28,450 nt of DNA from a bacterium (lineage in GTDB: Bacteria; Zixibacteria; MSB-5A5; GN15; FEB-12): positions 1-28,450 of the forward strand of contig JBDRNJ010000002.1 in assembly GCA_043811375.1 (NCBI GenBank). The letters run 5' to 3'. Every line of letters begins with the position of its first letter. The first letter of the stretch is position 1. The notes under the pieces were generated by a model that saw only the letters and a program-made list of their open reading frames with translations, did not search any database and was not told the DNA's origin. The position numbers and the translations under genes are program-made. Below are positions 4,843 through 28,000 of this stretch, one piece after another.

Positions 4843-5547
4843 ATGGAAGTTTGGCTTGATTTTGCTCGCGGGCCGCTTTTCCGCTTCAGTCTGGCGGTAA
4901 TGCTGCTTGGCCTTCTGCGAGTTATCCTGCTCGATCTGGTTGCGGCAGTAGCAGCCTACAACCGGGCTGGTGACAAAACATTACCCTGGAAGTTGATTGT
5001 CCGTCGCACCGCGCGGTGGTTTTTCCCGGCCAACCGGGTTTTCACCAATCGACCGGTGTACAGCCTGTTTTCGATCCTCTTCCATGTCGGCCTGCTGCTG
5101 GTGCCGATACTCCTTTTTGCTCATATCGAACTATGGCGCGACGTGTTGGGTTTTGGCTGGCCGGCGTTGCCCAAATTCTGGGCGGACTGGCTCACGATCA
5201 GTACGATTGTTTTCGCCCTGGCTCTCGTGATCAGCCGTATCTCCAGCCGGGCTTCAAGATTTCTGAGCCGCAGGCAGGATTATCTCTGGCCGCTGATTCT
5301 CCTGATTCCTTTCACAACCGGATATATCTGCGCCAATCTGAGTGTGACCCCGACGGTATATCAGTTGTCAATGCTCATACACATGCTCTCGGCAGAGTTG
5401 ATATTCGTGTTGCTGCCGTTTACGAAGATTGCCCATTGTGTATTGGTGCCGTTATCGCAGTTGATTTCAAACCTGGCCTGGAAATTCCCCGCCGAAACTG
5501 ATGATGACGTGTGCACGACCCTGAACAAGAAAGGAGCACCGGTATGA
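4843..5547 (+). CDS. HmcE/TmcC/DsrM-like (NarI family) cytochrome b membrane subunit
   Basis: About 5 hydrophobic segments, with heme-b His pairs FHVGLLLVPILLFAH and IHMLSAELIFVLLPFTKIAH. Confidence 0.88.
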   Translation: MEVWLDFARGPLFRFSLAVMLLGLLRVILLDLVAAVAAYNRAGDKTLPWKLIVRRTARWFFPANRVFTNRPVYSLFSILFHVGLLLVPILLFAHIELWRDVLGFGWPALPKFWADWLTISTIVFALALVISRISSRASRFLSRRQDYLWPLILLIPFTTGYICANLSVTPTVYQLSMLIHMLSAELIFVLLPFTKIAHCVLVPLSQLISNLAWKFPAETDDDVCTTLNKKGAPV

Positions 5548-6302: not shown

Positions 6303-6305
6303 CCT

Positions 6306-8198: not shown

Positions 8199-8604
8199 AG
8201 TACTCATAGTTGACGATGAACCGGATGTCGCCACCTACCTGTCAATGATCCTGCGAACAAACGGCTATGTTACTGCTGTGGCGGACAGTGTGGAATCCAG
8301 CCTGGAGGTGCTGCAAGACTTTCACCCGGACTTGATCTGCCTTGACATAATGATGCCCGGGAAACTCGGTGTATCTCTATATACGCATTTGAAACAGGAC
8401 ATTACCCTCAAACGAATACCTGTGATAGTTGTAAGCGGCGCATTGCAGGACGATCAATCCGACTTCCACTCCTATCTGTCCGATGAGTCCATTCCGGTTC
8501 CTGATTATATCATGGAGAAACCGGTGAATGTAGAGGAGTTCACCGCGGCAGTTAAACAGCTTATCACGTCGCGATCTTCGCAGAAAAGGCGGATCGGCAA
8601 ATGA
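8188..8604 (+). CDS. Single-domain response regulator receiver
   Basis: KVLIVDDE...PDLICLDIMMPG...IMEKPV. TTG start overlaps the upstream gene end. Confidence 0.9.
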   Translation: MSHKVLIVDDEPDVATYLSMILRTNGYVTAVADSVESSLEVLQDFHPDLICLDIMMPGKLGVSLYTHLKQDITLKRIPVIVVSGALQDDQSDFHSYLSDESIPVPDYIMEKPVNVEEFTAAVKQLITSRSSQKRRIGK

Positions 8605-10112: not shown

Positions 10113-10623
10113 GTCCGGGAAAACGGTCCTGGTAGTCGATGACGAAGCTGATGTCCGGAGTTTCCTGAAGGCAGCGCTGCTGGAGGCGGGATTCGAGGTC
10201 GTAACCGCGTCAGACGGCTTCGAGGCGTTGGAGGAAGTCAAAAAACGGATTCCTGATCTCATATCGCTGGATTTGGTAATGCCCAAAAAATCCGGGGCCA
10301 GATTCTACCGCGACCTCAACAGAAAAAAGGAGTGGTCCCGCATACCGGTCATTATAGTCACCGGCCACGCTCGTGATGATCTTGGCAAGGCTGACCTGAA
10401 GGAGTTGACAATGTCAGGTCCGGGAATCTATCTTGAAAAGCCGGTTAAACCGGATAACTACGTGGCGGCAGTGAAGCAGATTCTCGGCATGGATACGACT
10501 GCTGAAGAGAAAGAACTGGCCGACAAAGTCGAGCTCCAGAGTAATCTGAAAACTGCGATAGACGACGCCGACCCGGAGATTCTCCGAAAGATCCAAGAGA
10601 TGCTCGGTGGTGAGAAAGGATAG
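10102..10623 (+). CDS. Response regulator receiver with short C-terminal helical extension (resembles Tmc-associated DVU0259 type)
   Basis: VLVVDDE...PDLISLDLVMPKKSGARFY...YLEKPV. RBS GAGGAGGGAG precedes ATG 10102. Confidence 0.88.
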   Translation: MADKSGKTVLVVDDEADVRSFLKAALLEAGFEVVTASDGFEALEEVKKRIPDLISLDLVMPKKSGARFYRDLNRKKEWSRIPVIIVTGHARDDLGKADLKELTMSGPGIYLEKPVKPDNYVAAVKQILGMDTTAEEKELADKVELQSNLKTAIDDADPEILRKIQEMLGGEKG

Positions 10624-10675
10624 GGGCGGCGGAAACACCGGATCCGTAAAATCATTCGAAGGAGGTTCTGACGAT

Positions 10676-11056
10676 ATGTCCGAAAAGAAGAAAATACTTG
10701 TAGTTGATGATGAACCGGATGTGCTGAAATGGCTCACCATTCTGTTCGAGAATAACGGCTATGTGGTCATATCGGCACTGGACGGCTTTGAGGGTTTCGA
10801 GAAAGCCGAGGCCGAGAGCCCGGATCTGATTACGTTGGACATCACTATGCCCAAAGAATCGGGCATCAGGATGTACCGGAACCTACACGAATCGAAGACG
10901 CTTTCAGGGGTGCCTGTTATTATGCTGACCGGCGTTTCCCCTGAGTTCGAACGGTTTATTTCTACCAGGAAACAGGTAAACCCACCGGCGGCATATTTCG
11001 AGAAACCGGTAAACGATCAGGAACTGCTCGCCAAGGTCAAGGAACTGATCGGTTAG
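10676..11056 (+). CDS. Single-domain response regulator receiver
   Basis: KKILVVDDE...PDLITLDITMPKESG...YFEKPV. RBS AAGGAGG precedes ATG 10676. Confidence 0.9.
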   Translation: MSEKKKILVVDDEPDVLKWLTILFENNGYVVISALDGFEGFEKAEAESPDLITLDITMPKESGIRMYRNLHESKTLSGVPVIMLTGVSPEFERFISTRKQVNPPAAYFEKPVNDQELLAKVKELIG

Positions 11057-11158
11057 GCCGGCTAGCCAAAAGCCCGTGCGACGCCGGCCGAAGTTTGTGC
11101 CCCGGGTTGATCACCGCCGTCAGACAGCGCGCCATGGGGCAATAGAAAGGAGCGAATC

Positions 11159-11512
11159 ATGTCAAGGATTGCAGTACTCTACTGTAAACGGGTTAAGGAT
11201 CACTCGTGCATCGCATGTGCCAAGTGCTACAAGGGAATGGCGGAGAAAAACGGGGAGTTTGCTCGCCACGATGAAATCGAGTTGGTAGCCATGACCGATT
11301 GCGGGGACTGTCCCGGACTGACAATTCCGAGAGTTAAACTACTGAATGAAATCACCGGCAATCTCGACCGGCCGTTCGAGATACTTCACCTCGGGACGTG
11401 CATGAAGCTGGCTATGGAAACGGCTGAATGCCCGATTGATTTCGACGATCTCAAGGTTACCCTGGAAAGCAAGTTCGGTATCGAAGTAGTGCTCGGAACG
11501 CACTCCTATTAG
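11159..11512 (+). CDS. CGGC-domain protein (Cys-rich putative metal/Fe-S-binding)
   Basis: IAVLYC...CIACAKC...CGDCPG...LHLGTC...CP...VVLGTH, with RBS AAGGAG. Confidence 0.88.
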   Translation: MSRIAVLYCKRVKDHSCIACAKCYKGMAEKNGEFARHDEIELVAMTDCGDCPGLTIPRVKLLNEITGNLDRPFEILHLGTCMKLAMETAECPIDFDDLKVTLESKFGIEVVLGTHSY

Positions 11513-11715
11513 CGCCCCTCCCGCGGTGAGGGGCAGGGCAAGCGACTCGACCGGGATCGCTACAATCGTTGAACAGGAAATTCGACGCAGGATCGAATAA
11601 ACCGACCTCCAGTCAGGTATACATTCCGAGAGGAGGAAAAGCACGATGGGGAGACTTTACAGCAGGTTCCGGGTCGGATGAGCCTGAAGACCATGAGTTA
11701 GAATAGGAAAAAGTC

Positions 11716-11913
11716 ATGAAGAAATGTCCAAAATGTGCGTGCACGGCAATCGACAGTGGCCGGATTCTGAGCGCCGGAAGGATCTATTACAAGTCAGACA
11801 GCCTGAAACGTCGTCTCGCTTCAGGCACCTGCACAACTTATGTCTGTACCGCCTGTGGATTTTGTGAGACCTACATCAATGCCGAGTATCTTAACAAGAT
11901 CAAATCAAAATAG
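11716..11913 (+). CDS. Small zinc-ribbon protein
   Basis: CPKC...YVCTACGFCETY pattern in 65 aa, with AGGA RBS. Confidence 0.7.
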   Translation: MKKCPKCACTAIDSGRILSAGRIYYKSDSLKRRLASGTCTTYVCTACGFCETYINAEYLNKIKSK

Positions 11914-11962
11914 TCCGACCTCCTGCTGACCGGAGGTAGACAATGAAAACCGTGTGTGCATC

Positions 11963-12481
11963 CTAGGTCAGGTCGCCGAATTCGTTGCAGTATCTGGCGA
12001 CTCCGGAGGTCTGCGCCATCAGGGTGCGGTCCAGAAACCGGATCATGAAGACATTATCAGGGACATCCCACTCACAGCGGATACGGTAATCCGAAGCGGG
12101 CTTGAATCCGAATCGGGGATAGTAGTGTGAGTGCCCGAGGACAACCACGAAAGGGCATGATAGCTCTTTAAGTCGGTCGAGCCCGGCCTCTACCATTTTC
12201 GAACCAATCCCACGGCGTTGGTACTCCGGTAGTACGGCCATCGGTCCCAGCCCCATTCCCTCGGTGAGCGTGCGGTCACCCTCAACTTTGACTGGGCTGA
12301 AAAGGATGTGACCGACAACCCGATCTTCAAGGACAGCCACCAGCGAGATCGCCTCCGGACAACTGCTGCGTAACCGATCCACCAGGTTTGCCTCTCCCGG
12401 TTGGCCGAAAGCGCTATTGTTGATATAATGGACCGCATCAAAGTCTTCAGGTCGTTCATTGCGGACTACGAACATGTTCAT
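11963..12481 (-). CDS. GNAT N-acetyltransferase (YhbS-like)
   Basis: VVGHILFSPV, LGPMAVLPEYQRRGIGSKMV (acetyl-CoA motif A), VVVLGHSHYYPRFGF. Confidence 0.92.
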   Translation of the reverse strand: MNMFVVRNERPEDFDAVHYINNSAFGQPGEANLVDRLRSSCPEAISLVAVLEDRVVGHILFSPVKVEGDRTLTEGMGLGPMAVLPEYQRRGIGSKMVEAGLDRLKELSCPFVVVLGHSHYYPRFGFKPASDYRIRCEWDVPDNVFMIRFLDRTLMAQTSGVARYCNEFGDLT

Positions 12482-12538
12482 TTCTGCCTGTGCGAAATCA
12501 TCTGTGGCTGACTACCGAAGTCACGCTTAGATTAACTA

Positions 12539-13270
12539 TCACGCCGGGCCTCGGGACATAGCCTTCCGGCGCATGGCCTTCGGGTACTTCTCAATCGCGT
12601 AACGCAGGGCGGTACGGGGCATCCGGCTCTTGTGTTTCATGACATAGGCAAAGACCTCGTCCGGAAAAACGTTACCGGCTTCCTTGAGCATCCAGCCATA
12701 ACCTTTCTGCACCATATCATCGCTATCGACCAGCAGCGCATCGGCTGTCCGAAACAGATCCGGCAACAATTGACCGCTTCTGACAGGCACAATAAGGCTC
12801 ACAGCAGAGGCGCGGCGCAGCCACCTGTTTTTCGACCGGGTCCACCGGTGAACTTTCGGTGCCAGTTGAGGGAACATGGCGACAACGTTGCCGATAGGCC
12901 CGCAGCACAGGTGATCGCACGATCCCCAGTTGCTCACGTATCGTTTCAGCCAGGATTCAAAATGGCTGAAATCCTGCCGGCGGTAATCCTTTTTGATCTT
13001 GATGGCACATTCAAAGGCGAAAAACCTCATATACCGGTGGCCTGAAGCCAGCAACTGGTCGCAGTACTTGAGAATGTCCTGTGCAGGATGACTACTGATT
13101 TCCCGGAAACATTGATTGGATATCTTTCTCAGCACGGGGGTTTTCAGGCCAATCGGATCGTCCAGCTTTTCCTTGAAGAAGCGCTGGTAGTCGGATCTGT
13201 TTTCGGGTTTGTCCTGCCGGGCGATCTCGCGCTGCAACAAAGTGATGATTTTCCGCGCTTCAATGCTCAT
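12539..13270 (-). CDS. AlkD-family DNA alkylation repair protein (HEAT-like repeat glycosylase)
   Basis: GLKTPVLR, NWGSCD, WLRRAS, DDMVQKGYGWMLKE, MPRTALRYAIEK. Confidence 0.88.
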   Translation of the reverse strand: MSIEARKIITLLQREIARQDKPENRSDYQRFFKEKLDDPIGLKTPVLRKISNQCFREISSHPAQDILKYCDQLLASGHRYMRFFAFECAIKIKKDYRRQDFSHFESWLKRYVSNWGSCDHLCCGPIGNVVAMFPQLAPKVHRWTRSKNRWLRRASAVSLIVPVRSGQLLPDLFRTADALLVDSDDMVQKGYGWMLKEAGNVFPDEVFAYVMKHKSRMPRTALRYAIEKYPKAMRRKAMSRGPA

Positions 13271-13302: not shown

Positions 13303-15054
13303 CTACTTCTTCTTGTCGTCCCGACGGGGAGGGTTACAGGGCAGGTCGATGGTCATCGTGGTGCCCCGGTCGAGCTCGGAACTCACTCTGATCTCACCCT
13401 TGTGCTGCTGAATGATCTGGTAACAGATTGAGAGTCCCAGACCGGTGCCGACTCCGCTGCCCTTGGTAGTGAAGCCGGGTTCGAATATACGTCTCAGTTG
13501 ATCGGCTGGTATGCCGCAGCCGGTATCTTCAAATTGGATACAAATAAGGTCGTCGACGGCGAACGTCCTGATCTTGATTGCTCCTTTTCCTTCGATAGCC
13601 TGAGCGGCATTGATCAGCAGGTTCAAAAACACCTGGTTGAGCATTCCGGGGTAGCAGACCAGAGGGGGAATCTGGCCGTAATCGGTGGTGACGCTGATGT
13701 GATCTCCCAGTTGGCTTCGGGCCAGACCAAGCGTGTCATCCAGGCCTTCGTGTATGTCAACCTCTTTCAGTTCGGCTTCATCAAGGCGGGCAAATGTTCT
13801 CAGACGCTTGACGATGGTTGTAATGCGTTCATTAGCTGTGCAGATGACTCTGTCGGCGTCCGCGATCAGCTTCAGCATCTTCTCGACCGATAGATCGTTT
13901 CCGCCACCACTGTCTGTTGCCTTCGTATGCTTCAATCGGTTCACTGCCGTCATCAGAGTCGAATGCATACTATTGGCGGCCGCCAATGGAGTGTTGATTT
14001 CGTGAGCAATGCCTGCCACCAGTCGGCCCAGGGCGGCCATTTTCTCCGACTGTAGCAACTGCGCCTGTGTCTCGTGAAGCATCCGGTTGGCTTCCGCCAG
14101 TTCTTCCTGTTTGTGTTGAGAAGCATGCAGTTTTGCCTCAAGTACAGCTTGCTCACACTTTTCGCGGATAAGGCGGCAGTTCTCGAGTTTGGCTGCCAGT
14201 ATGTCTCCGAATGCAGCAAATGCCCGCAGATGGTCCTCGGTGAACTTAATACCGTCCAAGGTGGAATCCGCATAAAGGATGCCGGTCACCGCGTTTTGCT
14301 CAATCAGCGGCACGGCCATGATTGACCTCAGGCCGACTTCCACCGAGGGTGACTTGTTGGTGAACCGGGAATCACACTGGGTGTCGACCACTACGATGGC
14401 CACCTGTTTACTCAGGACTTCGTTTACAATCGTGGTGGATACCGAGAACTTGCCGGTCTCCATAGATTTGGCGGGGTAGCCGGCTGCCACCGACACCGTT
14501 TGGTCAGGATTGGCACTCAGCACTACCACCCGTTCGGATGCCACTGCCCGGTGCAGCAGCTTAAGCGATTTCATCAGCACCGTGTCGAGATTGTCAGAAT
14601 CAACCACCACCCGGCCGATTTCACACAGTGCCTGTGAGGTGCGCGGATTATTGAATATACCGGGCAACTGGCGACGAGCTTCATCGAAAGGCAGTACGAT
14701 GGAGGATTCCTCGGTCTCACCGGTATCGAATTTGTCGAGAGTGTCCCTGGTCGGTCCCCCGGTATCGGCCGTGACAACCTCGAACATCACGTCCCCAAAA
14801 GTGACCTCATCACCGATGGCCAGTTGGACAGTGCCGCTGATCAGGTCTCCGTTCACTTTGGTGCCGTTGCGACTGTTGAGGTCGGTCAGATAGATCTGGT
14901 TGTTATCACGAATATCCAGCATGGCATGCCGACGTGAAATCGACGTGGCTGAAATTTCGAAGTCATTGGCATGACTGCGCCCGATAGTGTGTTTGCCTTT
15001 GGAAAAGGGCTTGCCCAGGAACTGGGATGAATCGACGCTCTGTAGCTTTATCAT
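13303..15054 (-). CDS. FHA-GAF-histidine kinase (cytoplasmic)
   Basis: FHA (TIGR...ISRRHA...DLNSRNGT), GAF (RSIMAVPL...GILYADS...FTEDHL), H-box AGIAHEINTPL, LNQVFLNLLINA, DTGCGI, GTGLGLSIC. Confidence 0.93.
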   Translation of the reverse strand: MIKLQSVDSSQFLGKPFSKGKHTIGRSHANDFEISATSISRRHAMLDIRDNNQIYLTDLNSRNGTKVNGDLISGTVQLAIGDEVTFGDVMFEVVTADTGGPTRDTLDKFDTGETEESSIVLPFDEARRQLPGIFNNPRTSQALCEIGRVVVDSDNLDTVLMKSLKLLHRAVASERVVVLSANPDQTVSVAAGYPAKSMETGKFSVSTTIVNEVLSKQVAIVVVDTQCDSRFTNKSPSVEVGLRSIMAVPLIEQNAVTGILYADSTLDGIKFTEDHLRAFAAFGDILAAKLENCRLIREKCEQAVLEAKLHASQHKQEELAEANRMLHETQAQLLQSEKMAALGRLVAGIAHEINTPLAAANSMHSTLMTAVNRLKHTKATDSGGGNDLSVEKMLKLIADADRVICTANERITTIVKRLRTFARLDEAELKEVDIHEGLDDTLGLARSQLGDHISVTTDYGQIPPLVCYPGMLNQVFLNLLINAAQAIEGKGAIKIRTFAVDDLICIQFEDTGCGIPADQLRRIFEPGFTTKGSGVGTGLGLSICYQIIQQHKGEIRVSSELDRGTTMTIDLPCNPPRRDDKKK

Positions 15055-15213
15055 ATCACCGGACCAGCTTGAGGGGCGACGCCGGTTGCAGGATATCTGC
15101 CTGCAATGCGACAGCCCGATTCAACGACCTCGTCACCGAAGCCCGCGCTTCGACTGCGGCAATGTAAGTGACTGTGATCGTATTGTAAATAGAAATCTCG
15201 AGGGGATGCCGGC

Positions 15214-15242
15214 TTGCCACCTGTCGTTCGACAGCGTATATT
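15214..15242 (+). promoter_or_regulatory. sigma70-type promoter, probably giving a leaderless mRNA for the Ser/Thr kinase
   Basis: TTGCCA (15214-15219), 17 nt spacer, TATATT (15237-15242), ending 8 nt before ATG 15251. No SD sequence. Confidence 0.55.
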
Positions 15243-15250
15243 ACAACGCT

Positions 15251-17002
15251 ATGGAAGAACAGTACCTGGGCGACTACAAGATTGTCGAGCCGGTGGGAGA
15301 AGGTGCTATGGGAAAGGTCTACTTGGCTCACCACAAAGATATTCCGGCCCACCAGGTGATCCTCAAAGAACTGAAAAACCCACGTCACCTGGATCGTTTC
15401 GCAGACGAGGCCAACAATATGGCGATCCTGAATGCACATCCCGATATCTGCACCTTGTACAATTTCTTTAAGAAGGATGAGCGGACTTTTATAGTGATGG
15501 AATATATCGAGGGTATAACGCTCAAAGAAATGATCGACAGTGAGGAGCGTGTAACGACCGATCTGTACCTGAGAGTAGCTGTCGATGTTCTGGGTGTTCT
15601 CAGCTTTGCTCACGAGAAAGGTATCTACCATCGCGACATCAAACCAAGCAATATTATGGTCAACTGCTCCGGTAAGATTAAGGTGATTGATTTCGGTATA
15701 GCCAAAAGAGAGAGAGATGTTTCCTTGACTGCTGATGGCACTTTTTTCGGTACGCTGCAGTATGCCGCACCGGAGCAGTTCAATTTTGAGCAGAAGGTGG
15801 AAAACTGGGTAGTGGTTGACCTATACGCGCTTGGATCAACTCTGTATTTCATGCTGACGCGCCGAGTGCCCTATTTGGAAAAGAACTTCGAGGATCTGGT
15901 AGTGGCGAAGCGTCTGACCGATCCGGCACCTCCCAGCCAGATCAACCCCGAGATTGACAGCGCTGTTGATAATATTGTTATGAAATCACTGCACCGGGAT
16001 CCATCGCAACGATATCAATCGGCGATGGAGATGATTGAGGATATTGGTAAGGTGCGGCTGCCAGCTCTGGACTACACAGTAGACCTCGGGGAGACGGTTG
16101 GTATAATCTTAGAAGAAGGAAAGACTCGGCCCATTGCATCTGGTCAGCCACGGGTACCCGACAAGCCGAAACCCTGGCAGAAGTTGAAGTACTGGCTGAC
16201 GGCAGCGGTGATCGTAATTGCCGTAGCGGTAGGTAGTTATCTTAAATACTTCGGGGATCAAACAGATGAGGGAAATACCCAGACGGACACGTTAAGGGGT
16301 ACGGTTGGCCCGGTTGACTCGGGAGGAGGGGTGGTGCCGGCTATTCCGGCGGGCACCCTGTCGGTGGAGATAAATGCCCCGTCTGAGATTTGGGTAGACG
16401 ACACCCTTCTTGCTAATGCCGTTGATCGCTACGTGCTGACCCTTGATACCGGTGAACATAGGGTGCGTTTGGTGAACGAGCGGGCGGAGGGAGGCGACTT
16501 CGTCAGGACTGTCGCCATTATTGCCGAAGAGAGAAACACCCTGCGCCATGATTTCGTGATCGATTCTTCGGGCACGGTGGACATCCGGGTAGAGCCGTGG
16601 GGGGATGTCTACTTTGACGGCGAGCTGATCGACAGTAACACGAGCCATGTTTCCCATAGAACGGCCCCGGGGATTCATGAAATACGGGCGGAGAATCCCA
16701 CGGCGCGCAACCGGGTACGTAGAGATACGATCAGGGCATTGGCTTTTGAGCGAGTAAGTTGGGATTGCAGGTTTGAGTTGGTGCCGGATTCTGGGCGGCT
16801 GGTAGTAAGTTCCATCCCTATCGGGGCCAGTATTTATATCAACGGTGAACTTCAGCCCAACATTACGCCGTATACATTTACTTTATTCAAGGGTGAGTAC
16901 AACATATCAGTGTCGCTACCCACTTATCCCGCGCCACGGGAGACGACCTTGACAATCGTCCCCGGTGAATCTTCTGAGTTTGTTCCCGATTTTGATCGGT
17001 GA
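15251..17002 (+). CDS. Hanks-type Ser/Thr protein kinase with TM helix and extracytoplasmic PEGA-like repeats
   Basis: GEGAMGKV, VILKEL, HRDIKPSN, IDFGIAK, GTLQYAAPEQ, DLYALG, TM WLTAAVIVIAVAVGSYL, and three PEGA-like units (last GRLVVSSIPIGASIYING...GEYNISV). Start moved to MEEQYLGDY. Confidence 0.93.
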   Translation: MEEQYLGDYKIVEPVGEGAMGKVYLAHHKDIPAHQVILKELKNPRHLDRFADEANNMAILNAHPDICTLYNFFKKDERTFIVMEYIEGITLKEMIDSEERVTTDLYLRVAVDVLGVLSFAHEKGIYHRDIKPSNIMVNCSGKIKVIDFGIAKRERDVSLTADGTFFGTLQYAAPEQFNFEQKVENWVVVDLYALGSTLYFMLTRRVPYLEKNFEDLVVAKRLTDPAPPSQINPEIDSAVDNIVMKSLHRDPSQRYQSAMEMIEDIGKVRLPALDYTVDLGETVGIILEEGKTRPIASGQPRVPDKPKPWQKLKYWLTAAVIVIAVAVGSYLKYFGDQTDEGNTQTDTLRGTVGPVDSGGGVVPAIPAGTLSVEINAPSEIWVDDTLLANAVDRYVLTLDTGEHRVRLVNERAEGGDFVRTVAIIAEERNTLRHDFVIDSSGTVDIRVEPWGDVYFDGELIDSNTSHVSHRTAPGIHEIRAENPTARNRVRRDTIRALAFERVSWDCRFELVPDSGRLVVSSIPIGASIYINGELQPNITPYTFTLFKGEYNISVSLPTYPAPRETTLTIVPGESSEFVPDFDR

Positions 17003-17063: not shown

Positions 17064-18806
17064 TTAATCCAGATGCTCTATCCCAACCAGTTGGAAGCGG
17101 GCGTTATCGGGGTGATACCAGAGCCAGAGTAGCACTGGTTGGGACCAGGATCCGAATCGCTTGGTTTGGATGTTAATTTCAACCAGGTGTTTTTTTGGAT
17201 CATCCCCGGTACTGACACCTGACAGCGCGGACGTCAGGTCGGCCAGTTGCTGCCGATCCAGTCTGATTTTAGTGCCGTCAAACGGACGATCGCTGATTAC
17301 CGTACTGCCGTCGTATTTCACTTGATAGCGGTACCGGCTTGTCCCTGACAGTTCCAGCCCGTAAGCCACGGCCAGATCGTCAAAGCTGATCTCCACGGCG
17401 TCGTCGGTCCGGGTAAGCTTGAAACGGTCCAGGGGATTGACCTTGCCGAACCAGTAGCTTCCTATTTTGTCCCGCCGGGCTTTCATAGTTTCCAGCAGGT
17501 AGGCGGCGGCTTCAGGGTCGCTGTATTGCGCGGCCTCAATCAGCGCCCGCAGGTCGTCATCACGCAGCGACATGACTTGCTTGGCGGCCCAGAAGGCGTC
17601 ACGGTCGGTCATGATCTCGAAAGAAGGTATCGGGTAGATGGCGTCCCATTTGCCGGGATTGAATATATTCGACTCGTACGGGCCAATCGAGGGGTGCGGG
17701 AAGGAACTCTCGGCATCCTCCCACGGCCACTGTTTCAATCCCAGGGTGAACAACGAGACCAGAGCGTCCCGCAGGTCAAATGAATTGCGGTATCCGTCGT
17801 AGGCCCGCTGGGGTGTACTACCGCGGGCGCCAAAAGTGTTGCCGAAATCGATCAGGTAGTGTTTCAAAAACTGGCGGCCATCTTCCTCGACATAGATATC
17901 CAGAGTGTTCTGATCTTTGATGTCCCAGTGGTTAATCAGGGAAGCAAAGACATATAGCCCCCGCAATTCCCTTCGGTGTTGATGGGGACACCAGTCATTG
18001 GGGTCTCCATCGCGCGTCCCACGGTAGCTGAACGGTCCTCTGACGTTCGGCAGGGCTTTCGATGCCAGCGAACGAATCCGCCCATCGGGCATCCGATCGA
18101 CACGAGCCAGCACTTCCTCCAGCGATTGTTGCGTAAACTCTTTATTGACGCCATCACGGTCCTTGAACCGCAGGTCTTCTTTGACGTGCAAGTTTTCCGG
18201 CCGCCAGTAAACGATGGTCTCCTGAGGGACGTTGTATCCCATGGCGTAGAAGTAACGGGAGGATATGGCGGCGGCACCGGTCTGCAATTCCGGATAGCCG
18301 GCAGCATCGAACTTCAGGATATACAGGTCACCAGCCGCATCCTCGATCCAGAAGCCGGGTGTCGCGCCCTGAACCTTGGCCTGGACAACCGTCCATGATC
18401 CGGAGGTGTCGGGGCCGCTGCCGATCACTGCACCGTGCTTGAACTGCTCGGCGGTGAAGGGTTGCCGGGCATGACGGTTGGTATACCAGGCACAGTCGGG
18501 CACCTCGTCGAAGCTGTTGATATTCAGGGACTGACGAGGATTGCCGGTTATTTTGCGAACATCCCGAGGGAAATCCAGCAGTTGTTCCGCCTGTTCAAAG
18601 CTGGTCCGGGTCACCGTTTCCCAGATCAGCGACGGTTTGCGTTTGCCGGGGTCGTCGATGTTTTTAGTGTCATTGTCACGCCAGTGCGGATCCTCCGGAG
18701 TGTAGGCCGGTGGTCGGGAACAGGAGGTCACAATTAGCGGCAACAGGAGACAGCAGACCAGCAGCCGTCTCACTGACTTAATCGGTATGTCACGGTATGT
18801 ATTCAT
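17064..18806 (-). CDS. Lipoprotein with atypical (HipA/PI3-4-kinase-like) protein-kinase fold
   Basis: Signal II (RRLLVCCLLLPLIVTS-C), KVQGATPGF loop, YILKFD Lys, AMGYNVP, catalytic-loop-like HWDIKDQN, YLIDFGNTFG, and RBS AGGAGG. Confidence 0.7.
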   Translation of the reverse strand: MNTYRDIPIKSVRRLLVCCLLLPLIVTSCSRPPAYTPEDPHWRDNDTKNIDDPGKRKPSLIWETVTRTSFEQAEQLLDFPRDVRKITGNPRQSLNINSFDEVPDCAWYTNRHARQPFTAEQFKHGAVIGSGPDTSGSWTVVQAKVQGATPGFWIEDAAGDLYILKFDAAGYPELQTGAAAISSRYFYAMGYNVPQETIVYWRPENLHVKEDLRFKDRDGVNKEFTQQSLEEVLARVDRMPDGRIRSLASKALPNVRGPFSYRGTRDGDPNDWCPHQHRRELRGLYVFASLINHWDIKDQNTLDIYVEEDGRQFLKHYLIDFGNTFGARGSTPQRAYDGYRNSFDLRDALVSLFTLGLKQWPWEDAESSFPHPSIGPYESNIFNPGKWDAIYPIPSFEIMTDRDAFWAAKQVMSLRDDDLRALIEAAQYSDPEAAAYLLETMKARRDKIGSYWFGKVNPLDRFKLTRTDDAVEISFDDLAVAYGLELSGTSRYRYQVKYDGSTVISDRPFDGTKIRLDRQQLADLTSALSGVSTGDDPKKHLVEINIQTKRFGSWSQPVLLWLWYHPDNARFQLVGIEHLD

Positions 18807-18820: not shown

Positions 18821-20107
18821 CTACCAGTCAGCGCCGAGTTCAAAGTAAAAACGGGTCGGTTCATCACTGAAAGCGACCTGCATTCCAAAGGTGATTCCTT
18901 CGGCGTTGAAGATGCGCAGGCCGCAGCCGTAGTCGTAGTTGAAATCATCTTTGTAGAAATCAGTGAAGATATCTTCATAAACCTGCCCGGCATCGACAAA
19001 GAGGAAAGCGTCGACGACATCCCAGACAGGGTAACGATACTCCACCGTGCCCATGGCCATGTCTTCGCCGAGAAAGCGGTATCGGAAATAACCTCGCAGA
19101 TCGTCCGCTCCCCCTAAAGAACTGAGCAAATAGAACGGCACCACCGTGCGTTCGCCCGAAAACTCCACCGATTGAGCCTGCACCCTGACAGCCAGGATCC
19201 GTTTGCGAAACAGGTTCAGGTAGGCGCTGGCGTCACCGCGAGACACCCACACGTCGATATCATCCGAAACCCCGGTGCCCAGATAATAGTCGGTGGCAAC
19301 TGAAACCAGCAGGCCGCGCGACGGCTGACCCTGGTGGTCACGACAGTCAAAGGTCAGGGCGCCGCCGGTGTAAACGAATCGAGTGGGGGCAAAATGATCT
19401 TCCAACAAGCCGAATTTTTGGCTGATCAAAGTGAGATTGCCCTCGCTGGTAGTTGCCAGACCGTCAGAAATGTTCGTCGCCTTAAATCCCCCTGAGATGG
19501 TGGCCTTCAGACTGCCCAGCAGACGCCTGGTACCCTCCACGTGAACCAGTGTTTGCTCCTGTGAGAAGTTTGTCTCCTCGTCGATATTGGTGTCGTTGCC
19601 GATACCATAGAAGCTTTCCTGGGTGAGCTTGCGATAGCGAGCGAATATTTCAAAGGAATTAACCTCACCCCGCATCCGGTAGCCGATTTTGTAGTCCTGG
19701 TACTGATTACTGGAATAGGCGCCTTTCATTTTCAGCACGCCTCCCCCGATATTCTTTAGCTTCAAACCCAGACCGCCCTTGAGTCCGGTGCGGGAACTGT
19801 AGCCGGCCACCGGATAGAACGGCTCAATGGGGTTTTGCAGGTACAACAATCTCCTCAGCGGCGTTTCATAGGAGCCGAGTATAATTCCCTGAGAAGTAAG
19901 TTTGACGGCGTAGATCGGCAGTCGGGCCACCTCGCCGGGTATACTCAGGAGTACGTCCCCGACAGAGGGTTTCGGCAGGCTGCGCTCCCGCGCCGTAGTC
20001 GAATCGGGAATGTCTGCCGCTGCTATCGGCGTGACCAGACAGACCCAGACAACCAGGCTAACGCAGGCTCCCAGTAAAACCTGCCTGACACCAGTCTTTG
20101 CTACCAT
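18821..20107 (-). CDS. Omp85 (BamA/TamA superfamily) beta-barrel protein without evident POTRA domains
   Basis: Signal peptide ending PIAAA-D, LRGY..YRF loop-6 motif, VEYRYP, FVDAGQV, YGCGLR, and C-terminal beta-signal FYFELGADW. The start at 20107 has RBS AAGGAG. Confidence 0.88.
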   Translation of the reverse strand: MVAKTGVRQVLLGACVSLVVWVCLVTPIAAADIPDSTTARERSLPKPSVGDVLLSIPGEVARLPIYAVKLTSQGIILGSYETPLRRLLYLQNPIEPFYPVAGYSSRTGLKGGLGLKLKNIGGGVLKMKGAYSSNQYQDYKIGYRMRGEVNSFEIFARYRKLTQESFYGIGNDTNIDEETNFSQEQTLVHVEGTRRLLGSLKATISGGFKATNISDGLATTSEGNLTLISQKFGLLEDHFAPTRFVYTGGALTFDCRDHQGQPSRGLLVSVATDYYLGTGVSDDIDVWVSRGDASAYLNLFRKRILAVRVQAQSVEFSGERTVVPFYLLSSLGGADDLRGYFRYRFLGEDMAMGTVEYRYPVWDVVDAFLFVDAGQVYEDIFTDFYKDDFNYDYGCGLRIFNAEGITFGMQVAFSDEPTRFYFELGADW

Positions 20108-20194
20108 ATTGTGACTCCTTCCCCAACACCGCGAGTGCACGGAATATCTCCGGTGGTGTACGATGTTATGATTATTACTTAGCATAATTTAAGT

Positions 20195-21523
20195 TCAACT
20201 CTCCGCGGTAATTTCGTCAAACTTCCTGCCGGCGTATCTGGCGGCAAAAATCCATAGGATTACTACCACACCGGTGAATACCGACAACCAGCGAGCACCG
20301 GAAATACCAACGAAGGCCGCGGACATTGCCAGATTCACGCCTACTGCCAGCACTTTAGCGAACCGTTGCACGAACATGTCAATAAAAGCTTTGGCTTTGT
20401 ATTTTTCGTCGCGGGAGGTTGGTACGTAAAGAGTCTCCTTGCTCGACTGATTAATGGAGTAGTGAAAACTGTTGTTAGCCACTGTCAGAAAGCTGCCTAC
20501 CCATAGTATGGGGAAGACCAGGAAACCGGCCGAGGCACCCAGGATGATAACCGGCAGGATCAGAAGAGCCGTCTTGACCCCGAATCTCGTCATCACGAAA
20601 CTGGTTAAGAAAAGCTGCACAAACATTGAAACGATATTCTGAACAGCGTACCACGTGGACAGATGACGTGTGAAATCATCATTCTCCTTGAGATAGTGTG
20701 TGAGTGTCTGAGTGAATTGAAACTCCAACACTTGGGAAGCTATCTCATAAAGTCCGACAACAGCAACAATTGCCAACAGGTAGCGGGACCGAAAGACAAG
20801 TTTGGCTCCCTCCAGAACCGGATTGACAGATTTTGAAGATTCGGCAGATGGTCTTGAAGCTGGTTTGATAGGCTCCGGTGGTGGGTTTTGAGATACAATC
20901 CGCCCTGATGCTCCGGCAATAATCCATATCAAGGTGACCAGCCCCACGCAAATTCCCATCCACGCAGCTGGAGACAAGGCATCAACCCAGAGCCTTAGAA
21001 TGCTGGCTCCAAAAGCACCACCCACTACACCGCCAAAGACAATCACACCGTAGAGACGCTTGGCGGCATCGGGAGTGACACTATCATTGAGAAACGCAAA
21101 AAAGCCGGCGACCATCAGGGTAGTAAAGAGATCACCGAAAAGATAGAAAGTCCATACCGTAAGAGCATGAGGGTTGTTGATGGTCGGATAGTAGATTGCC
21201 AGGCAGGCGATAATAAAACCGGATAGAATATAACAGAGCTGCTGTCTTCTGAATCGTCGCGCCAGCCACGTGAAGACTACCACTGCGGCAAATGCTACAA
21301 CCATGTTGAGTATTTTGGCAATCTGCTCTGCTTGGACGGCCGTCAAATGCCACGATAACAAATCAAACCCAGACTCCCTATAGAATTGGATAAACATCGC
21401 CTTCTTGAGAGGTTTCAGGATCCAGAAGGTTGTGATGGTCAGGAAGAAATAGCTGGCCATCAACAACGACAGCGGCAGCTCCTGCCGACGGATGTCCATG
21501 AACACCTTAAACGGATTCGCCAT
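20195..21523 (-). CDS. NTT/TLC-family nucleotide transporter (Npt1/Npt2 ATP/ADP translocase-like), stand-alone
   Basis: About 12 TM segments, with YFFLTITTFWILKPLKK, FAFLND...AKRLY, and KETLYVPTSRDEKYKAKAFIDMFVQRFAK matching the NTT C-terminal signature. No HEAT or cNMP extension. Confidence 0.87.
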   Translation of the reverse strand: MANPFKVFMDIRRQELPLSLLMASYFFLTITTFWILKPLKKAMFIQFYRESGFDLLSWHLTAVQAEQIAKILNMVVAFAAVVVFTWLARRFRRQQLCYILSGFIIACLAIYYPTINNPHALTVWTFYLFGDLFTTLMVAGFFAFLNDSVTPDAAKRLYGVIVFGGVVGGAFGASILRLWVDALSPAAWMGICVGLVTLIWIIAGASGRIVSQNPPPEPIKPASRPSAESSKSVNPVLEGAKLVFRSRYLLAIVAVVGLYEIASQVLEFQFTQTLTHYLKENDDFTRHLSTWYAVQNIVSMFVQLFLTSFVMTRFGVKTALLILPVIILGASAGFLVFPILWVGSFLTVANNSFHYSINQSSKETLYVPTSRDEKYKAKAFIDMFVQRFAKVLAVGVNLAMSAAFVGISGARWLSVFTGVVVILWIFAARYAGRKFDEITAES

Positions 21524-21873
21524 ATACACCCCACGATGAGATCGGTTCGCCGGTCAGTTGACATTCAATCAGAAACAATAGCTCCTGCCTTTACCCTAAT
21601 GACATTACCGAAACGACAACAACACGTCCGAACCAGGACAAATACAATCCAATGGTTGTGCCGATCGCTCAGAACTGTCTGCAACTCGGTGGAAAATATG
21701 GTAACCGTACGGTGATGTCAATATCGCTGCTAAGACTGTTTTATATTGTTGACCGAACATCACAGTCGTTGGGAAGTGGTCGATAACACCGTGTGTCGTT
21801 GATGGTGTTTGGCGTAACACGCTGTGTAACATGCCGTTCGTCCGACCTGGCGACCCGAAGTCGGCCGTCGGCC

Positions 21874-21901
21874 TTGACAATCTCCCCAAAGAGGTTATCT
21901 T
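21874..21901 (+). promoter_or_regulatory. sigma70-type promoter for the giant surface protein gene
   Basis: TTGACA (21874-21879), 16 nt spacer, TATCTT (21896-21901), followed by an AT-rich stretch. Confidence 0.6.
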
Positions 21902-21939
21902 AAAATTTAATACAAAAATCAAACAGGAGAATGTGGTTT

Positions 21940-22026
21940 ATGCGAGTATGGGTTCAGGGGTTGGTGTCACCAATTATTGGCGTGGCGGCGTTGTTGTTGG
22001 CTGTCAGGTTTTCGGTTATGTTATGA
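21940..22026 (+). CDS. Putative 28-aa hydrophobic peptide (upstream ORF)
   Basis: AGGAG at 21925-21929, translation MRVWVQGLVSPIIGVAALLLAVRFSVML*, and a stop that overlaps (ATGA) an ATG in frame with the giant ORF. Confidence 0.35.
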   Translation: MRVWVQGLVSPIIGVAALLLAVRFSVML

Positions 22027-22040
22027 GGATGGAATTGAAT

Positions 22041-25000
22041 ATGAACAAGCGATTAGTTTACCGGGTATTTTTAGTGCTGATGTCGGTCACGACGTTATAC
22101 CTGCTGACCACCTGCGCCAAAAAGATAATCAACGACGACCACGATACCGCCATCCAGTTCAAAATAGCGGTGGAGTACAGCACCGCCGAGCTGGCTGACC
22201 TGATAGTCAAGTACCGGGTGACTATCTCTGCCTCCGACATGGAAACAATCACGGCGACGCTGGAGGAGCGGAACGGAATTGTCAGCGGCGAGGTGAGAGA
22301 AGTACCGGAAGGTTCCGGTCGCAATATCCTGTTGGAGGCGCTCGATGTCCATGACACCGTGATCTATGCCGGTTCGGTGGATACATCGATTATCGCCGGT
22401 CAAACAGTCAGGGTGAATATACAATTGGAGCCAGTGGTCAGTATCGTGCGTTTGTCACCGAAGTTCAGTTCGGCGCAGTCGACCGATACGCTCACTGTCG
22501 AGGTGCGCGCCTGCAATGTCGGTGACTTAAGCCACGCTGATCTGGCAGTGGTGATTGACACGTCAGCATTAGATGTAACCGGTGTAACCGGTGATAACGT
22601 GGACTCTTTCTATTTCAACGCCGGTCGGGACAGTCTTTACATTGCTATTTTCGTAAACTCATCACCACCAGACACCGGGGCAGGTATCCGGTGCCTGGAT
22701 CTGGCAACGCTGCAGTGTTCCTGTCTGGTAGCGGATTTTTGCAGTTATTCCGCCAGTCTGGGTGTGGATGTGTTGAGCATTCGGTCCGACACATTGACGT
22801 TAGAACTTCCTTACACCGACGGCATGACAACCCGCATCAGCGGCTTCTTACTGGACGTGACGCCTGGCACGCTGTCTTTCCAGATACCCGCTCCGGGACC
22901 GTATCTGCACGGTGTGTTTTCATTGGTGGAAAGCTGTGGCAACGGGGACATCCCATATAGCCTGGAGATTGACGAATCGGTTGACTGGTTCACGATCAGT
23001 TCGCAATCTGGTCTGACACCGGCGGTTTGCACGGTCGGTATCAATACAGCAGGTATGCCTTATGAGACGAGCTACTTCGATTCCATCCGGGTAACATCGC
23101 AGCTGGCGACCGACACGTCCTTCGTTTATGTGTTACTTAATATCGGCGACTGCCCGCCGCCGTTGCCGCCGGGCTCGCCGGTGGGACAGATAGGCCACCT
23201 TTACGGTGACACGGTAGCCACATTGATCATGTGGCTCCAGAGCGGCAGCCCCGATGTGGCCGGCTACAATGTATACAAGAGTTCCGGCGATGGTGACTTC
23301 ACGACAATTAACGACAACCTGATCACCCAAAACCCGATGGACCCCAGTTTCGGGAACTTTCTCCATATCGACTATGACCTTAACACTACCTCGCAGGTGC
23401 GATTGCGTTACTATGTCACAGCGGTGAGTGACAGTGGCTGTGAGAGCAGCAACTCGGATACCATCACGTTTGTCCCGGCCGATATCAGCGATTCCTCCCA
23501 GACGCGGGTGCAGAACCTGCAACCGATGGACGGCTGGTTCTCCTCCGATGTCCCCACTTTTACGTGGAACTCCGAGCCGGGAGCTGAGTCTTACATGATT
23601 CTGCTGACTCCGAACACACCGGGCAATGATCCTGCTATCTGGCTCTACCGCCACACCGATACCAGTTTCCAACTGGGGGAGCAGTTGGGTATGACCTATA
23701 TGCCTCTGGCGACGGCGCATTCCCCGCTGGTCGGCGGTCAGTTGTACCGCTTCCAGGTCTATCCGATCAATTCCGACCGTGCCGTCTACCGCTGGGGTGA
23801 GGCGACGTTTGAAGCTATCGGCCCGGAAGGGTTCCTGGGGATAACTGAATGCGAACCGCCGGGTGCGGAGGACAGTCGGGATTGGAGGAATCACGGTTCA
23901 ACACGATATGGTGTAGCACCCGCCTGCCCCAACCCGGCGTCGATGCCGGTCAGTGTGGGGCTGAGCAACATGGATGATGGCACGCTGGATTGGTATGTAT
24001 TGAGTAGTCTGTCGGATACGGTGAAAGTAGGCCAGTCATCTTTCATGCCGGCTGGCCACCATTACTTCGTCTGGGACCTGACCGATGATGAGAGCATTCG
24101 TCTTGTTCCCGACATCTACCGTTTCTGCCTGCGGATTAACGACTTCCAAACCTATGGCGACATACAGGTGCTCGATTATTCGGATACTGTGCCGGCGCCC
24201 ACATCACCGCTCGGCCTGATGGGCTACACGGAACACGGTGATACAATCATGACCGTGATCTTTTGGATTGAGCCCGATTACCATGATATAGCCGGCTACA
24301 ATGTTTACAAGAGTGTGGGTGGCGGCGCTTTCGACACATTAAACGACAGTCTTATTACGGGGAACCCCATCAATCCCGCCTGGCCCAACTGTTTATGGGT
24401 GGACTACGGTAACGACACGTCGTCGACAGTTGTTCACAGATACTATATCAAGACCGTGAACTCAGCCGGGTCAGAGAGCGAAGCTTCCGATACAATCAGC
24501 TTCGTGCCGTCAGTCCTGTGGCAGGCAATGATGGGAGAAGGTAGCCCACGGATTGAGAACCTGCGACCGAGAGACGGTCTCTTCGGTTCCACCAGCCCCA
24601 CATTTAGCTGGGACCCGGTGGCCGGTAGCCAGGGGTATGCCATGATGCTCAGACCGACCGGCTCCGAGGGGGACGAACCGGTCATGTGGATCTATGGGAG
24701 CAACGCCACCAGTATGCAGCTTGGCGAAACCGGTGGCTTGACTTACGTACCGCTTGAATATTCACCACTGATTGCCGGGACATATTACCATTTCAATGTG
24801 TTCGCCATTAACTCGGACAACGCTGTATATATGATGTCTGAAGGGTCGACCTTTGAAGCCATCGGACCGGAGGGATTTACCGGTATCACCAGGACGGATG
24901 TGGACTGCGTCGTTGACTCGTCAGAAGTCGACACTTCTGACTGGTGCGACAATTGTGGCGGCGGACCGCTGCCATCACAGTTCTGTTCGCCTCCGGCCTG

Positions 25001-28000
25001 TCCCAACCCGGCCAGTGACTTTACGGAGATTAATCTGGGGTTGCCTCAAGCGTCTGATTATACGGTGTATATATTTGACAACATTGATGCTGACTTCGCT
25101 TTGGTCAACAGCTTGACGGGTTACGGAGATGCCGGCATGTTGGCTATCGAATGGGATCTCACGGACAGCAATGGCGTAAAACTCGACACTGGTATATACA
25201 GGTGTCTAGTTAAGGCCGGCGACTTCAGTTGCTGGGGTGACATCCGTATAACGGACTGCACTATTCTCTCTGCTCCGGGACTCGTCTCGCCGATCAATGG
25301 CGACACCGGTGTAAGTCATACACCGACACTCATATGGCATGACGTGGATGGTGCCGACAACTATGAAGTCGAAGTTGACACCGATAGCACGTTCACTGAT
25401 TCACCGGCGTCAGGGTACATTGTCGATACTACCGTGGTACCTCAAATCCCTATCAGCGATACCGTGTACTGGCATGTGCGGGCGCTATCTTCATGCGACA
25501 CCTCCGACTGGTCGGATACCTGGCATTTTACCACGACTGATACGGCTACAGGTTCGGTCTGTGTCTCCCTCTGGATGGGAGAGGATAGTTGTATCGATAT
25601 CTCAAGTCCATTCGCAACCGGTGAGGTTTGGGTGGGGCTGTATATGAACGCCGCTGAGGAATTGGGCGGTTTCGATTTGTTGATTGACTACGACCCCTCC
25701 TCCATGTCGTTTGAAATGGCTACCATTGCCACTACCGAGATTGAGGCCTGGGAATACTTCATTGACTCTATAGTAGACTCCAACAGGATTCGTCTGGTGG
25801 CAATAGCAGATGTAAACAATGGTCCGTTCCACCCACCTACGGAGTCACTGACTCCCAACGGGCTGGCTGTTCTGTTGCAGTTTTTCGTTGCTTTCGACAG
25901 CAACCTGTATGGGCAGTATCTGCCGATCGACTTCTACTGGGTAGACTGCGGTGTCAACACTCTAAGTAATGTAGACGGTAGCGAGGACTTTGTTGATCTG
26001 CAGATATATAGCGCCGAGAGTGTTCTCATTTGGGATGAAGACGACGATATCAACTACCCTGAAGGCTCACGGCCTGCCGGTTTGGGATTCAGCGATGACT
26101 GCCTGACCGATTTTCCTGATGCGCGCCGCTGCGCCATTTTTCAGCATGGTGGCGTCTGTGTTGCAGAGCCGGCACCCTGCCAATTGCAGTGTTTCACCAG
26201 TGCCATCACTTTTCCTGCAATCGAAGGTGGTCCCGACCCGACCAACGCTCTCTTCACGGTCAGTGAGGCGGGTGGCGGCAACTGTCCCTTTGCAGTTTCC
26301 TGGGATTCGAGTTGGTTTAGTGTTGTTCCCGACACCGGCACCACACCCGCTCAATTGACTGTCTCTATCGACATATCAGGTCTGGCAGCAGGTACTTACA
26401 TCGATACCATCTGGGTAACCTCGCCGCAGGACCCGGACTCGGTGTCTGTCCGTATTCAGCTCGACCTGTCACCTGTTGGAGGTGATTTTGCAGCGTCCTT
26501 TACCGCCTCATCCGGCAGCCAGATGTACATATTCGATTCGACGGTGTCGGTCGGCGATGTCGTAGGCGTTTCCGTAGTCGGCAGCCCTGACGATTACGAT
26601 GTGCCCTGGTGTGACGGGATAGGCTGCTGTATCAGCCACAGCCTGTACGATGCCTACTCTCTGGCGCGTGTTGCCGCCGACACTATTCATCTCACCGGTG
26701 GGTATCCGGGGGCGAACTGGCTCGACGGCTGGCTGGAAGTGCGCGACTCCCTCAGTATTGATACTGTGTTTGGGTCGATTGGCGTAGAAGCCCACGGCGC
26801 CTGGTACCAGGTCTCGCCGGATCGACACCGCCTGGAATGGCATGGCGGGCAGTCTGATGACGGTTGTAGCTGCTCTGATTGCGGCCGACTAAACCTCTAC
26901 ATCGTACTGGCCGGTACCACCCCTTCCTGCACAACCGTCTGGATCGCAGCCGACGCCGGTCTGGAAGCCGCCGTCCGGAACCACATTGGCAAGCCGACCA
27001 ATACTGTCTGGCTATGTGATGTGGACACGATAACGAACCTGGATGCCTCAGGCCGCAGTATCTACGGTTTGGGCGGTATCCAGTACCTGATTGCGCTGGA
27101 CACGCTTAATCTCTTCGACAACCAGATTACCGATATCGGCCTGCTGGCTGCTCTAACATCGCTAAGCTATCTTGATCTCTCCTACAATCAGACTTCAGAC
27201 ATCGAGTCACTGGCTGAAATGGATTCGCTGGTTTGGCTTAACCTCTTTGTCAACCAGATCATTGATATCACTCCACTGGCTGGATTGACGTCGTTGAGTT
27301 ATCTGTATCTTGCCGATAACCAGATCGTTGTCATCACTTCGCTGGCGGGATTGGATTCGTTGGTTCTACTTAATCTGTTCAATAACCAGGTCGAAGACAT
27401 CAGCCCGCTGGTTGCCAACAGCGGCCTGGCTGCCGGTGATACAGTTCACGTTTGGTATAACCCTCTGAATGACTCTTCCATCAATATCCACATTCCTGCG
27501 CTCACGGACAGGGGCGTCGTGGTTCGCTCCAAATTCCTTGTGTTCGACCCTGACACGCTTTATTTCTATGCCGATTCAGGTGGAACTAACCCGGCAGCGC
27601 AGCAAGTTCTGGTCAGCGAGGCGGGCAACTTCTACTCATTGGATTACACCATGGAGGAATTCACCTCCTGGCTGTGGCTCACTAATCCTTCTGGTACCAC
27701 ACCTGGCAGCACGATGGTGTATGTTGATATCACCGGCTTTTCGGTGGGCGGCTATTCCGATTCGATTGAGGTGACATCGGCCCAGGCCTATTACTCAACC
27801 AAGTCCGTCTACTGCAGTCTGGTGGTGAGCAGCCCGGACGCTGGCCTTGTCTTCCCCGACACCGGCCTGGAGGGCGCTATCCGGGATCATATCAGCAAAC
27901 CGACCGGGCCGATTTATGTCAGCGATGTGGATACGATCACGTATCTGGATGCTTCGAGCCGCAATATCTCCGATTTGGGCGGTATCCAGCACCTAACTGC

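Follow-up and report, generated by a model that had tools for sequence, protein, structure and literature searches.

On the minus strand of a 28,450-nucleotide stretch of Zixibacteria DNA (FEB-12 genome, contig JBDRNJ010000002.1, positions 1 to 28,450; the window), a row of three genes encodes an NTT/TLC carrier, an Omp85 beta-barrel and, last, a protein whose predicted structure supports its assignment to an uncharacterised family of exported atypical kinases. The protein is a new family in a known fold and the novelty lies in the system. We propose that a periplasmic kinase docked on the barrel would use ATP delivered by the carrier to phosphorylate envelope proteins, and that phosphatases would reverse the modification; taken whole, this stands in our estimate a little short of an even chance. 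Envelope phosphorylation fed by an NTT, whether the acceptor is a protein or a lipid or glycan, we consider probable.

The kinase, barrel and carrier genes

The features of the three-gene row, with the evidence for each, are as follows.
17064..18806, minus strand: predicted exported atypical kinase-fold lipoprotein, 580 amino acids (open reading frame, homologues, model, fold matches)
18720..18806, minus strand: putative signal peptide and lipobox VTS-C29, residues 1-29 (sequence; model helix 9-27)
18354..18377, minus strand: K144-VQGATPG, end of beta1 and Gly loop (K144 and G147 conserved)
18270..18314, minus strand: beta3 K165, loop E173 and alphaC position A179 (alignments and model)
17907..17930, minus strand: catalytic loop HWD295IK297DQN300 (residue conservation)
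17841..17849, minus strand: D320FG, predicted metal-binding motif (D320 in 81/81)
17439..18449, minus strand: predicted kinase domain, residues ~120-456 (structure matches)
17082..17438, minus strand: C-terminal FN3-like beta-sandwich, residues ~457-575 (Z about 7.5-8, a common fold)
18821..20185, minus strand: Omp85 beta-barrel without POTRA, 454 amino acids, signal-like N-terminus (PF01103, E 1e-15)
20195..21529, minus strand: inner-membrane carrier of the NTT/TLC (ATP/ADP translocase) family (PF03219, E 1.4e-21)
21693..21721, minus strand: weak candidate for a sigma70-like promoter 5' of the row (10/12 matches)

The genes share a strand in the order NTT, Omp85, kinase, with gaps of 9 nt between the first two and 14 nt between the last two. 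The kinase frame starts with ATG, and AGGAGG, which resembles a ribosome-binding site, lies 8 nt 5' of it. The promoter candidate is weak, since the scan gave 6 promoter-like sites where 3.7 were expected, and a terminator-like site sought at the 3' end of the kinase gene was not found. The Omp85 product scores 58.5 against 24 bits with PF01103, has no POTRA match and is under the NF047779 cut-off (70.6 against 200 bits), which places it among the noNterm Omp85 proteins. The NTT gene is over the PF03219 gathering score (77.3 against 21 bits), and the profile of its family matches PDB 9j3n, ADP,ATP carrier protein 1, at E 4e-47. A sequence-only reading of this stretch had recognised the kinase gene but missed the two genes upstream, which hold most of the interest.

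Synteny was counted in the best 80 of at least 580 confirmed loci, with 6 kb fetched on either side of the kinase. Omp85 is present in 73/80, in 68 of them directly upstream on the same strand; the other seven comprise five with fewer than 300 bases upstream, one that is partly masked and one real absence (L021). An NTT is found in 51/80, with at least two NTT matches in 23. Both single-domain carriers and forms with HEAT/cNMP domains occur at kinase loci and share PF03219 with the known NTT/TLC carriers and NTT-HEAT-cNBD fusions; the study of that family by Major et al. 2017 (PMC5381601), unlike our proposal, suggests no kinase or Omp85 link in its available text. Metallophos-like genes (13+4 loci), PAP2 (13 loci) and cNMP-binding genes (13 loci) recur beside the kinase module, as do response regulators and His and Ser/Thr kinases. 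Further phosphatase folds nearby are PhoD (twice), a phosphodiesterase/nucleotide pyrophosphatase and a His-phosphatase, and the phosphatases near the kinase have N-termini that appear signal- or lipobox-like. A second locus of the FEB-12 genome, on contig C60 (L081, G000:C60:18000-34000, 764-12845), holds the rest of the module: an exported-looking 443-amino-acid protein, PAP2, two response regulators, His kinases, a cNMP-binding protein and NTT-HEAT. The same set flanks the kinase in L002, L007 and L023. The 443-amino-acid protein has no Pfam match, and its relatives follow the kinase in those three loci and in L005.

The link holds at the level of whole genomes. In three phylum samples, each centred on a genome picked because it carries the kinase and with kin that are not independent, an NTT is present in 77/82 kinase genomes against 24/241 others. 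Within the window's own phylum the 34/121 genomes with the kinase are exactly those with PF03219, and both are missing from the other 87, with nine families mixed; the listed NTT matches of G019, G033, G031, G022 and G002 are on contigs other than the kinase's. The second phylum (that of G121) has 25 genomes with both, 2 with the kinase only (one kinase counted in this phylum being an N-terminal fragment), 4 with the NTT only and 70 with neither. For the third phylum (that of G122) the kinase was counted at E<1e-100 only and 8 weak-match genomes were set aside; an NTT accompanies the full-length kinase in 18/21.

Predicted fold, catalytic residues and likely export of the kinase

The AlphaFold2 model of the kinase (predicted local distance difference test, pLDDT, 92.9; predicted template-modelling score 0.92), Foldseek and a wide fold search agree on a bilobal kinase fold. 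The best Foldseek matches are Fam20 structures (4kqb, E 5.5e-5). The wide search covered 48,161 chains, 16 of which reach Z>=8, and the top 14 are all atypical kinases: CtkA (Z 13.5, root-mean-square deviation (rmsd) 4.2, 223 aligned residues), Hydra Fam20 (13.0, 3.9, 250), PI4KIIa (13.0, 4.5, 241), CotH (5jda; 12.0, 4.1, 230), actin-fragmin kinase (Z 11.4), HipA/HipT (Z 10.9) and MavQ (Z 10.1) are among the matches. These cover residues ~120-456, and FN3-like domains match residues 457-575 at Z about 8. The CotH and Fam20-type ectokinases, which the sequence-only reading had named as functional analogues, are matched in fold, with Fam20 leading in Foldseek and CotH among the best matches of the wider search.

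This likeness is one of fold only. Pfam returned 0 families at E<=1, the Fam20 and CotH profiles included; NCBIfam gave a single sub-threshold match, and a PDB sequence search found no credible relative (best E 0.03, taken as chance). An Atlas neighbour with Fam20C on 11% of its members scores 0.79 and is a lead only. The fold matches, the absence of profile matches and a conserved hydrophobic N-terminus together bear out the earlier view of an uncharacterised secreted kinase family. Of 8,000 candidates scored, 872 are homologues, with Zixibacteria making up most of the best named ones, and the family comprises 3,631 representatives at 50% identity. By their record titles, the best 80 loci come from Zixibacteria, Ignavibacteria, Acidobacteriota, Gemmatimonadota, Latescibacterota, Eisenbacteria, Rhodothermales, Balneolaceae, Nitrospira and others, and the cultured genera Salinibacter, Fodinibius and Edaphobacter carry the family. 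Two to four full-length paralogues, some in tandem, occur in G221, G126, G168, G146 and G198. A search for longer fused homologues gave one protein of 1160 amino acids (P0121) and no Omp85 fusion, an absence that is weak evidence; P0121 joins the kinase to about 600 amino acids without a Pfam match, and the Atlas has a like-structured cluster of 983 amino acids.

The known relatives in fold differ from the window kinase in several respects. Fam20, a group of secretory-pathway kinases that includes the protein kinase Fam20C and the xylose kinase Fam20B, works outside the cytosol, matches at Z 11-13, and has two critical lysines and an essential Glu that K144/K165 and E173 seem to parallel in position; identity is however 8-12%, and the window kinase is bacterial, with D-x-K-x-x-N and DFG motifs, a lipobox, an FN3 tail and the link to Omp85 and NTT. 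CotH, known from the Bacillus spore coat, is likewise an extracytoplasmic atypical kinase fold of bacteria, and Streptococcus SIR_1594 also combines a kinase with FN3 (10.1101/2024.04.20.589940, available text), but identity is 10% and the window family has diderm hosts, a barrel partner and the NTT link. CtkA, HipA/HipT, PI4KII, MavQ and actin-fragmin kinase match at Z 9.6-13.5 over 210-242 residues and act in a cytoplasm, whereas the window kinase carries a predicted export signal and nothing resembling an antitoxin lies beside it. A HipA-type toxin was ruled out on these two grounds, together with the Omp85 and NTT neighbours and the lack of a HipA Pfam match.

All the motifs quoted by the sequence-only reading are present in the order it gave, and their conservation among homologues takes them beyond chance. 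In 81 homologous open reading frames from the 80 loci, D295, K/R297, H316 and D320 are invariant (81/81). K165, which sits in YIL-K165-FD, is found in 78/81 (3 gaps), that is in every ungapped row; N300 is kept in 78/81 and K144 in 77/81 (3 gaps, 1 masked). The beta3 Lys, the catalytic Asp and Asn and the metal-binding Asp are therefore all conserved. H293 opens the catalytic loop and G190-YNVP closes the HipA/PI4K-like helix. The fold match and the order of secondary structure would fit K165, D295 and D320 meeting in the cleft.

The window kinase is probably exported, because its lipobox Cys29 lies behind a hydrophobic h-region; C29 is at least 90% conserved in the alignment of homologues. 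Among full-length proteins (8 near and 23 wider rows that were shorter or did not begin with Met were dropped), the N-terminus is hydrophobic in 107/112 near relatives and 122/126 wider representatives, 229/238 in all. A strict lipobox is found in 84/112 and 59/126, respectively. On these counts export looks invariant and lipidation optional, which supports the export half of the earlier description as an exported lipoprotein and makes the lipid anchor a variable trait of the family.

Since the top fold matches are near ties, the fold does not give the substrate. The catalytic loop reads H-x-D-x-K-x-x-N, the Ser/Thr-kinase consensus, and for this reason we favour Ser/Thr residues of proteins as acceptors. 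An outer-membrane or periplasmic lipid or glycan might instead be phosphorylated by the same NTT-fed envelope kinase, with PAP2 reversing the reaction. The Z values of Hydra Fam20, a xylose kinase (PMC7948968, available text), and PI4KIIa (both 13.0) and of MavQ (10.1) equal or come close to those of the protein kinases. PAP2 occurs in 13 loci and at the second locus of the FEB-12 genome, and about half or more of the members seem to carry a membrane anchor. Most loci are however without PAP2, genes for making lipids or glycans do not recur (one LPG-synthase and one MlaD among 97 neighbours scanned) and the D-x-K/R-x-x-N loop is protein-kinase-like. We consider a lipid or glycan acceptor unlikely.

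The proposed mechanism and its alternatives

The periplasm is widely regarded as being without ATP. We propose that the exported kinase would dock on the Omp85 barrel encoded next to it, likely at the periplasmic face of the barrel, and that NTT-family carriers would feed it by exporting ATP in exchange for ADP. The kinase would then likely phosphorylate envelope proteins, and the linked, probably exported phosphatases would reverse this. Judging from the neighbouring genes, an NTT-HEAT(-cNMP) partner may put the ATP supply under cyclic-nucleotide or two-component control. That the NTTs carry ATP, that they do so outwards and that the kinase is periplasmic are points we infer. An engineered periplasmic kinase received its ATP via the medium (PMC5038940, available text).

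Fused proteins offer a parallel. A phosphoesterase at one kinase locus led to Metallo-Omp85 proteins of 1,270-1,300 amino acids, of which two were examined.
L102:873-4724, minus strand: Metallo-Omp85, phosphoesterase, kinase fold and barrel
L103:6891-10703, minus strand: Metallo-Omp85, phosphoesterase, kinase fold and barrel
Their barrel is homologous to the window Omp85 (hhalign 99.6%, E 1.7e-24), and a relationship between noNterm and Metallo barrels was described by Heinz and Lithgow 2014 (PMC4104836), whose main text, as available, does not contain the word 'kinase'. Of 7,999 candidates, 3,897 are homologous to the middle region, whose model (pLDDT 92.7) has an unannotated atypical kinase fold, matching PI4KIIa (Z 14.3, rmsd 4.4, 252 aligned), CotH (Z 14.2, rmsd 4.3, 254 aligned) and CtkA (Z 12.4); a beta-rich domain follows it ahead of the barrel. 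The beta3 position is R, the loop reads D-R-H-x-D-Q/N and D-R-D follows. The fused parts are separate genes at the kinase loci, and since phosphatase, kinase fold and barrel stand here in one chain, we argue that the separate genes would act together at the outer membrane.

A number of results weigh against the proposal, and the first concern these fusions. The window kinase and the Metallo-Omp85 middle domain are at most remotely related in sequence: a single-sequence comparison gave E 0.24, full-length profiles did not match, and trimmed profiles gave a probability of 8.7% at E 0.004. This link is marginal and shared ancestry of the two domains within the fold class is not claimed. A search of the two Metallo-Omp85 genomes for NTT found none in either. 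The predicted complex of barrel and kinase is likewise weak evidence that the two bind: its score of 0.60 (best control 0.00; contact agreement of at least 84% between runs, partner pLDDT at least 86, no interface reported) is read against a mark reached by 116/157 solved and 2/215 mismatched pairs, and the passing pairs at or below 0.60 are 18 solved ones and both mismatches. Docking with self-built alignments and with ligands falls outside that calibration.

The carrier raises a further difficulty. The NTT gene is far under the TIGR00769 (NTP/NDP exchanger) cut-off, at 67.9 against 387.2 bits, and a literature search for NTT substrate residues found nothing. Characterised NTTs, a small part of the family, are importers, and Major et al. 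2017 left the role of NTTs in free-living bacteria open (PMC5381601, available text). Uptake of nucleotides by these carriers would suit a scavenging system in which substrates enter through the barrel, the kinase fold and the phosphatases trim or retain them in the periplasm and the NTTs import nucleotides, and the several phosphatase folds nearby (Metallophos, PAP2, PhoD, pyrophosphatase, His-phosphatase) would fit such a role. Even in this scheme, however, a periplasmic kinase would require a donor; Omp85 barrels have been described as closed assembly/translocation factors (PMC4104836, available text), and it is signalling genes, not salvage enzymes, that recur beside the module. Scavenging appears to us distinctly unlikely.

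Kinase and NTT also occur apart. Five genomes with a full-length kinase (G253, G269, G309, G199, G204) have no NTT by a custom profile run with a positive control; the G309 kinase is on a contig of 5.34 Mb, about the whole genome, and Omp85 adjoins the kinase in 4 of the five. Their kinase loci are L133 (G309), L131, L132, L134 and L135. Within the third phylum, 20 genomes have an NTT without a full-length kinase, and the 8 genomes set aside there have short exported relatives only, with an NTT in 1/8. These relatives are 310-410 amino acids long in those examined, bear signals and give weak matches (E 1e-9 to 1e-18). Six such kinases lie at loci taken from 5 of these 8 genomes: 2/6 come directly after PPK1, one of them in the order PPK1-kinase-DUF4956 with a tyrosine phosphatase that looks exported beside it, and in 3/6 a phosphatase of this kind is no more than two genes away.
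L129:3078-7793: short exported kinase-like family, no Pfam match
L126:2448-5675 and 10317-12248: the same family
L130:4566-6124: the same family
L128:2704-5682: the same family
The neighbours at these loci are PPK1, DUF4956, a PLD-like protein or DSP/PTP phosphatases that look exported, and the genomes concerned give no match to PF03219. NTT is not the sole context for exported kinases of this group, and the alternative context again has a phosphoryl-donor gene; the short family is possibly a polyphosphate-fed counterpart.

These loci raise the prospect that the window kinase itself uses polyphosphate or serves its metabolism, with the NTT in a side role. The short relatives after PPK1, the five kinase genomes without NTT and PPK2, which adjoins the long family twice, point that way, as does the secreted CotH-FN3 kinase SIR_1594, which lies beside a VTC polyphosphate polymerase in Streptococcus (10.1101/2024.04.20.589940, available text). 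Set against them are the NTT link in 77/82 genomes, the rarity of polyphosphate genes beside the kinase (2/97 neighbours scanned) and the weakness of the short relatives' matches, and we give this role for the window kinase a slim chance.

The last objection comes from the alphaC helix, where the window protein lacks the Glu typical of the protein-kinase-like superfamily. As the sequence-only reading had seen, TGAAAIS puts Ala at position 179. In 149 wider-family representatives compared with the 120 nearest relatives, this position is acidic (E/D) in 137/149 and in 1/120, which confines the loss to the nearest clade. That reading had also offered the Glu of YPELQT, E173, as a substitute. E173 is Glu in 113/149 wider representatives, in 108 of them together with E/D179, and is not a compensatory replacement because it is family-wide and coexists with the acid at 179. 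In the model, strand 161-166 precedes E173 and helix 174-188 follows it, which puts this residue where the beta3-alphaC loop ends. In ceFam20 the essential Glu213 stands at the end of this loop, Fam20C uses two lysines (PMC5413348), and the loop-end Glu of Fam20 is the one whose loss kills activity (PMC7948968, PMC5413348; available text of both). E173 seems to resemble Glu213 in position, a parallel of topology.

A kinase of low activity, or a dead one acting as a nucleotide-binding sensor or scaffold on the barrel, would account for the missing acid in the nearest clade. Position 179 is non-acidic in 119/120 near relatives, 6 wider representatives have no acid at either 173 or 179, and the Metallo-Omp85 middle domain has R for the beta3 Lys. 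Of the near relatives without an acid at 179, however, 118/119 retain K165, D295, K/R297, N300 and D320, both lysines and E173 are kept, and the activity-critical loop-end position of Fam20 (PMC5413348, PMC7948968; available text) is seemingly held by E173. The missing Glu lowers the canonical status of the protein, not its standing as something that works like a kinase, and we think a low-activity or dead kinase very unlikely.

Surrounding genes and significance

Other genes border the module. An open frame of more than 2,200 amino acids (21753-28448, plus strand), divergent from the NTT row, runs out of the window; it has a lipobox-like LTTC, and from its motif labels, repeated domains and leucine-rich repeats, it looks like a large surface protein. 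On the other side, 13303-17002 holds an FHA-GAF-His kinase (minus strand) and a divergent Ser/Thr kinase (plus strand) with a transmembrane-like stretch and PEGA. The latter converges on the kinase gene, and Ser/Thr kinases flank the module in Gemmatimonadota and others. Farther off, 992-11512 (plus strand) carries what we take from motif labels to be a respiratory module, presumably a sigma54-type regulator, an Fe-S oxidoreductase and membrane cytochrome b-like, 4Fe-4S and NrfD/multiheme-like genes, with a two-component cluster.

No description of a kinase-Omp85-NTT module was found in the literature searched, which left most subscription papers outside its coverage; the supplements of PMC4104836 and PMC5381601, also outside it, may bear on the module.

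The chances seem to us evenly balanced that many diderm phyla have an undescribed envelope phosphorylation system, of which Metallo-Omp85 would be the fused form and the polyphosphate-linked short kinases a version with an alternative donor. If true, bacteria would have their own counterpart of the phosphorylation carried out in the secretory pathway. Such a system would give free-living bacteria a reason to keep NTTs (PMC5381601) and bring these carriers and the noNterm and Metallo Omp85 subfamilies (PMC4104836) under one explanation, as far as the available texts of both papers go. With a conserved set of kinase, barrel and carrier, both the export of ATP and phosphorylation in the envelope can be tested directly.

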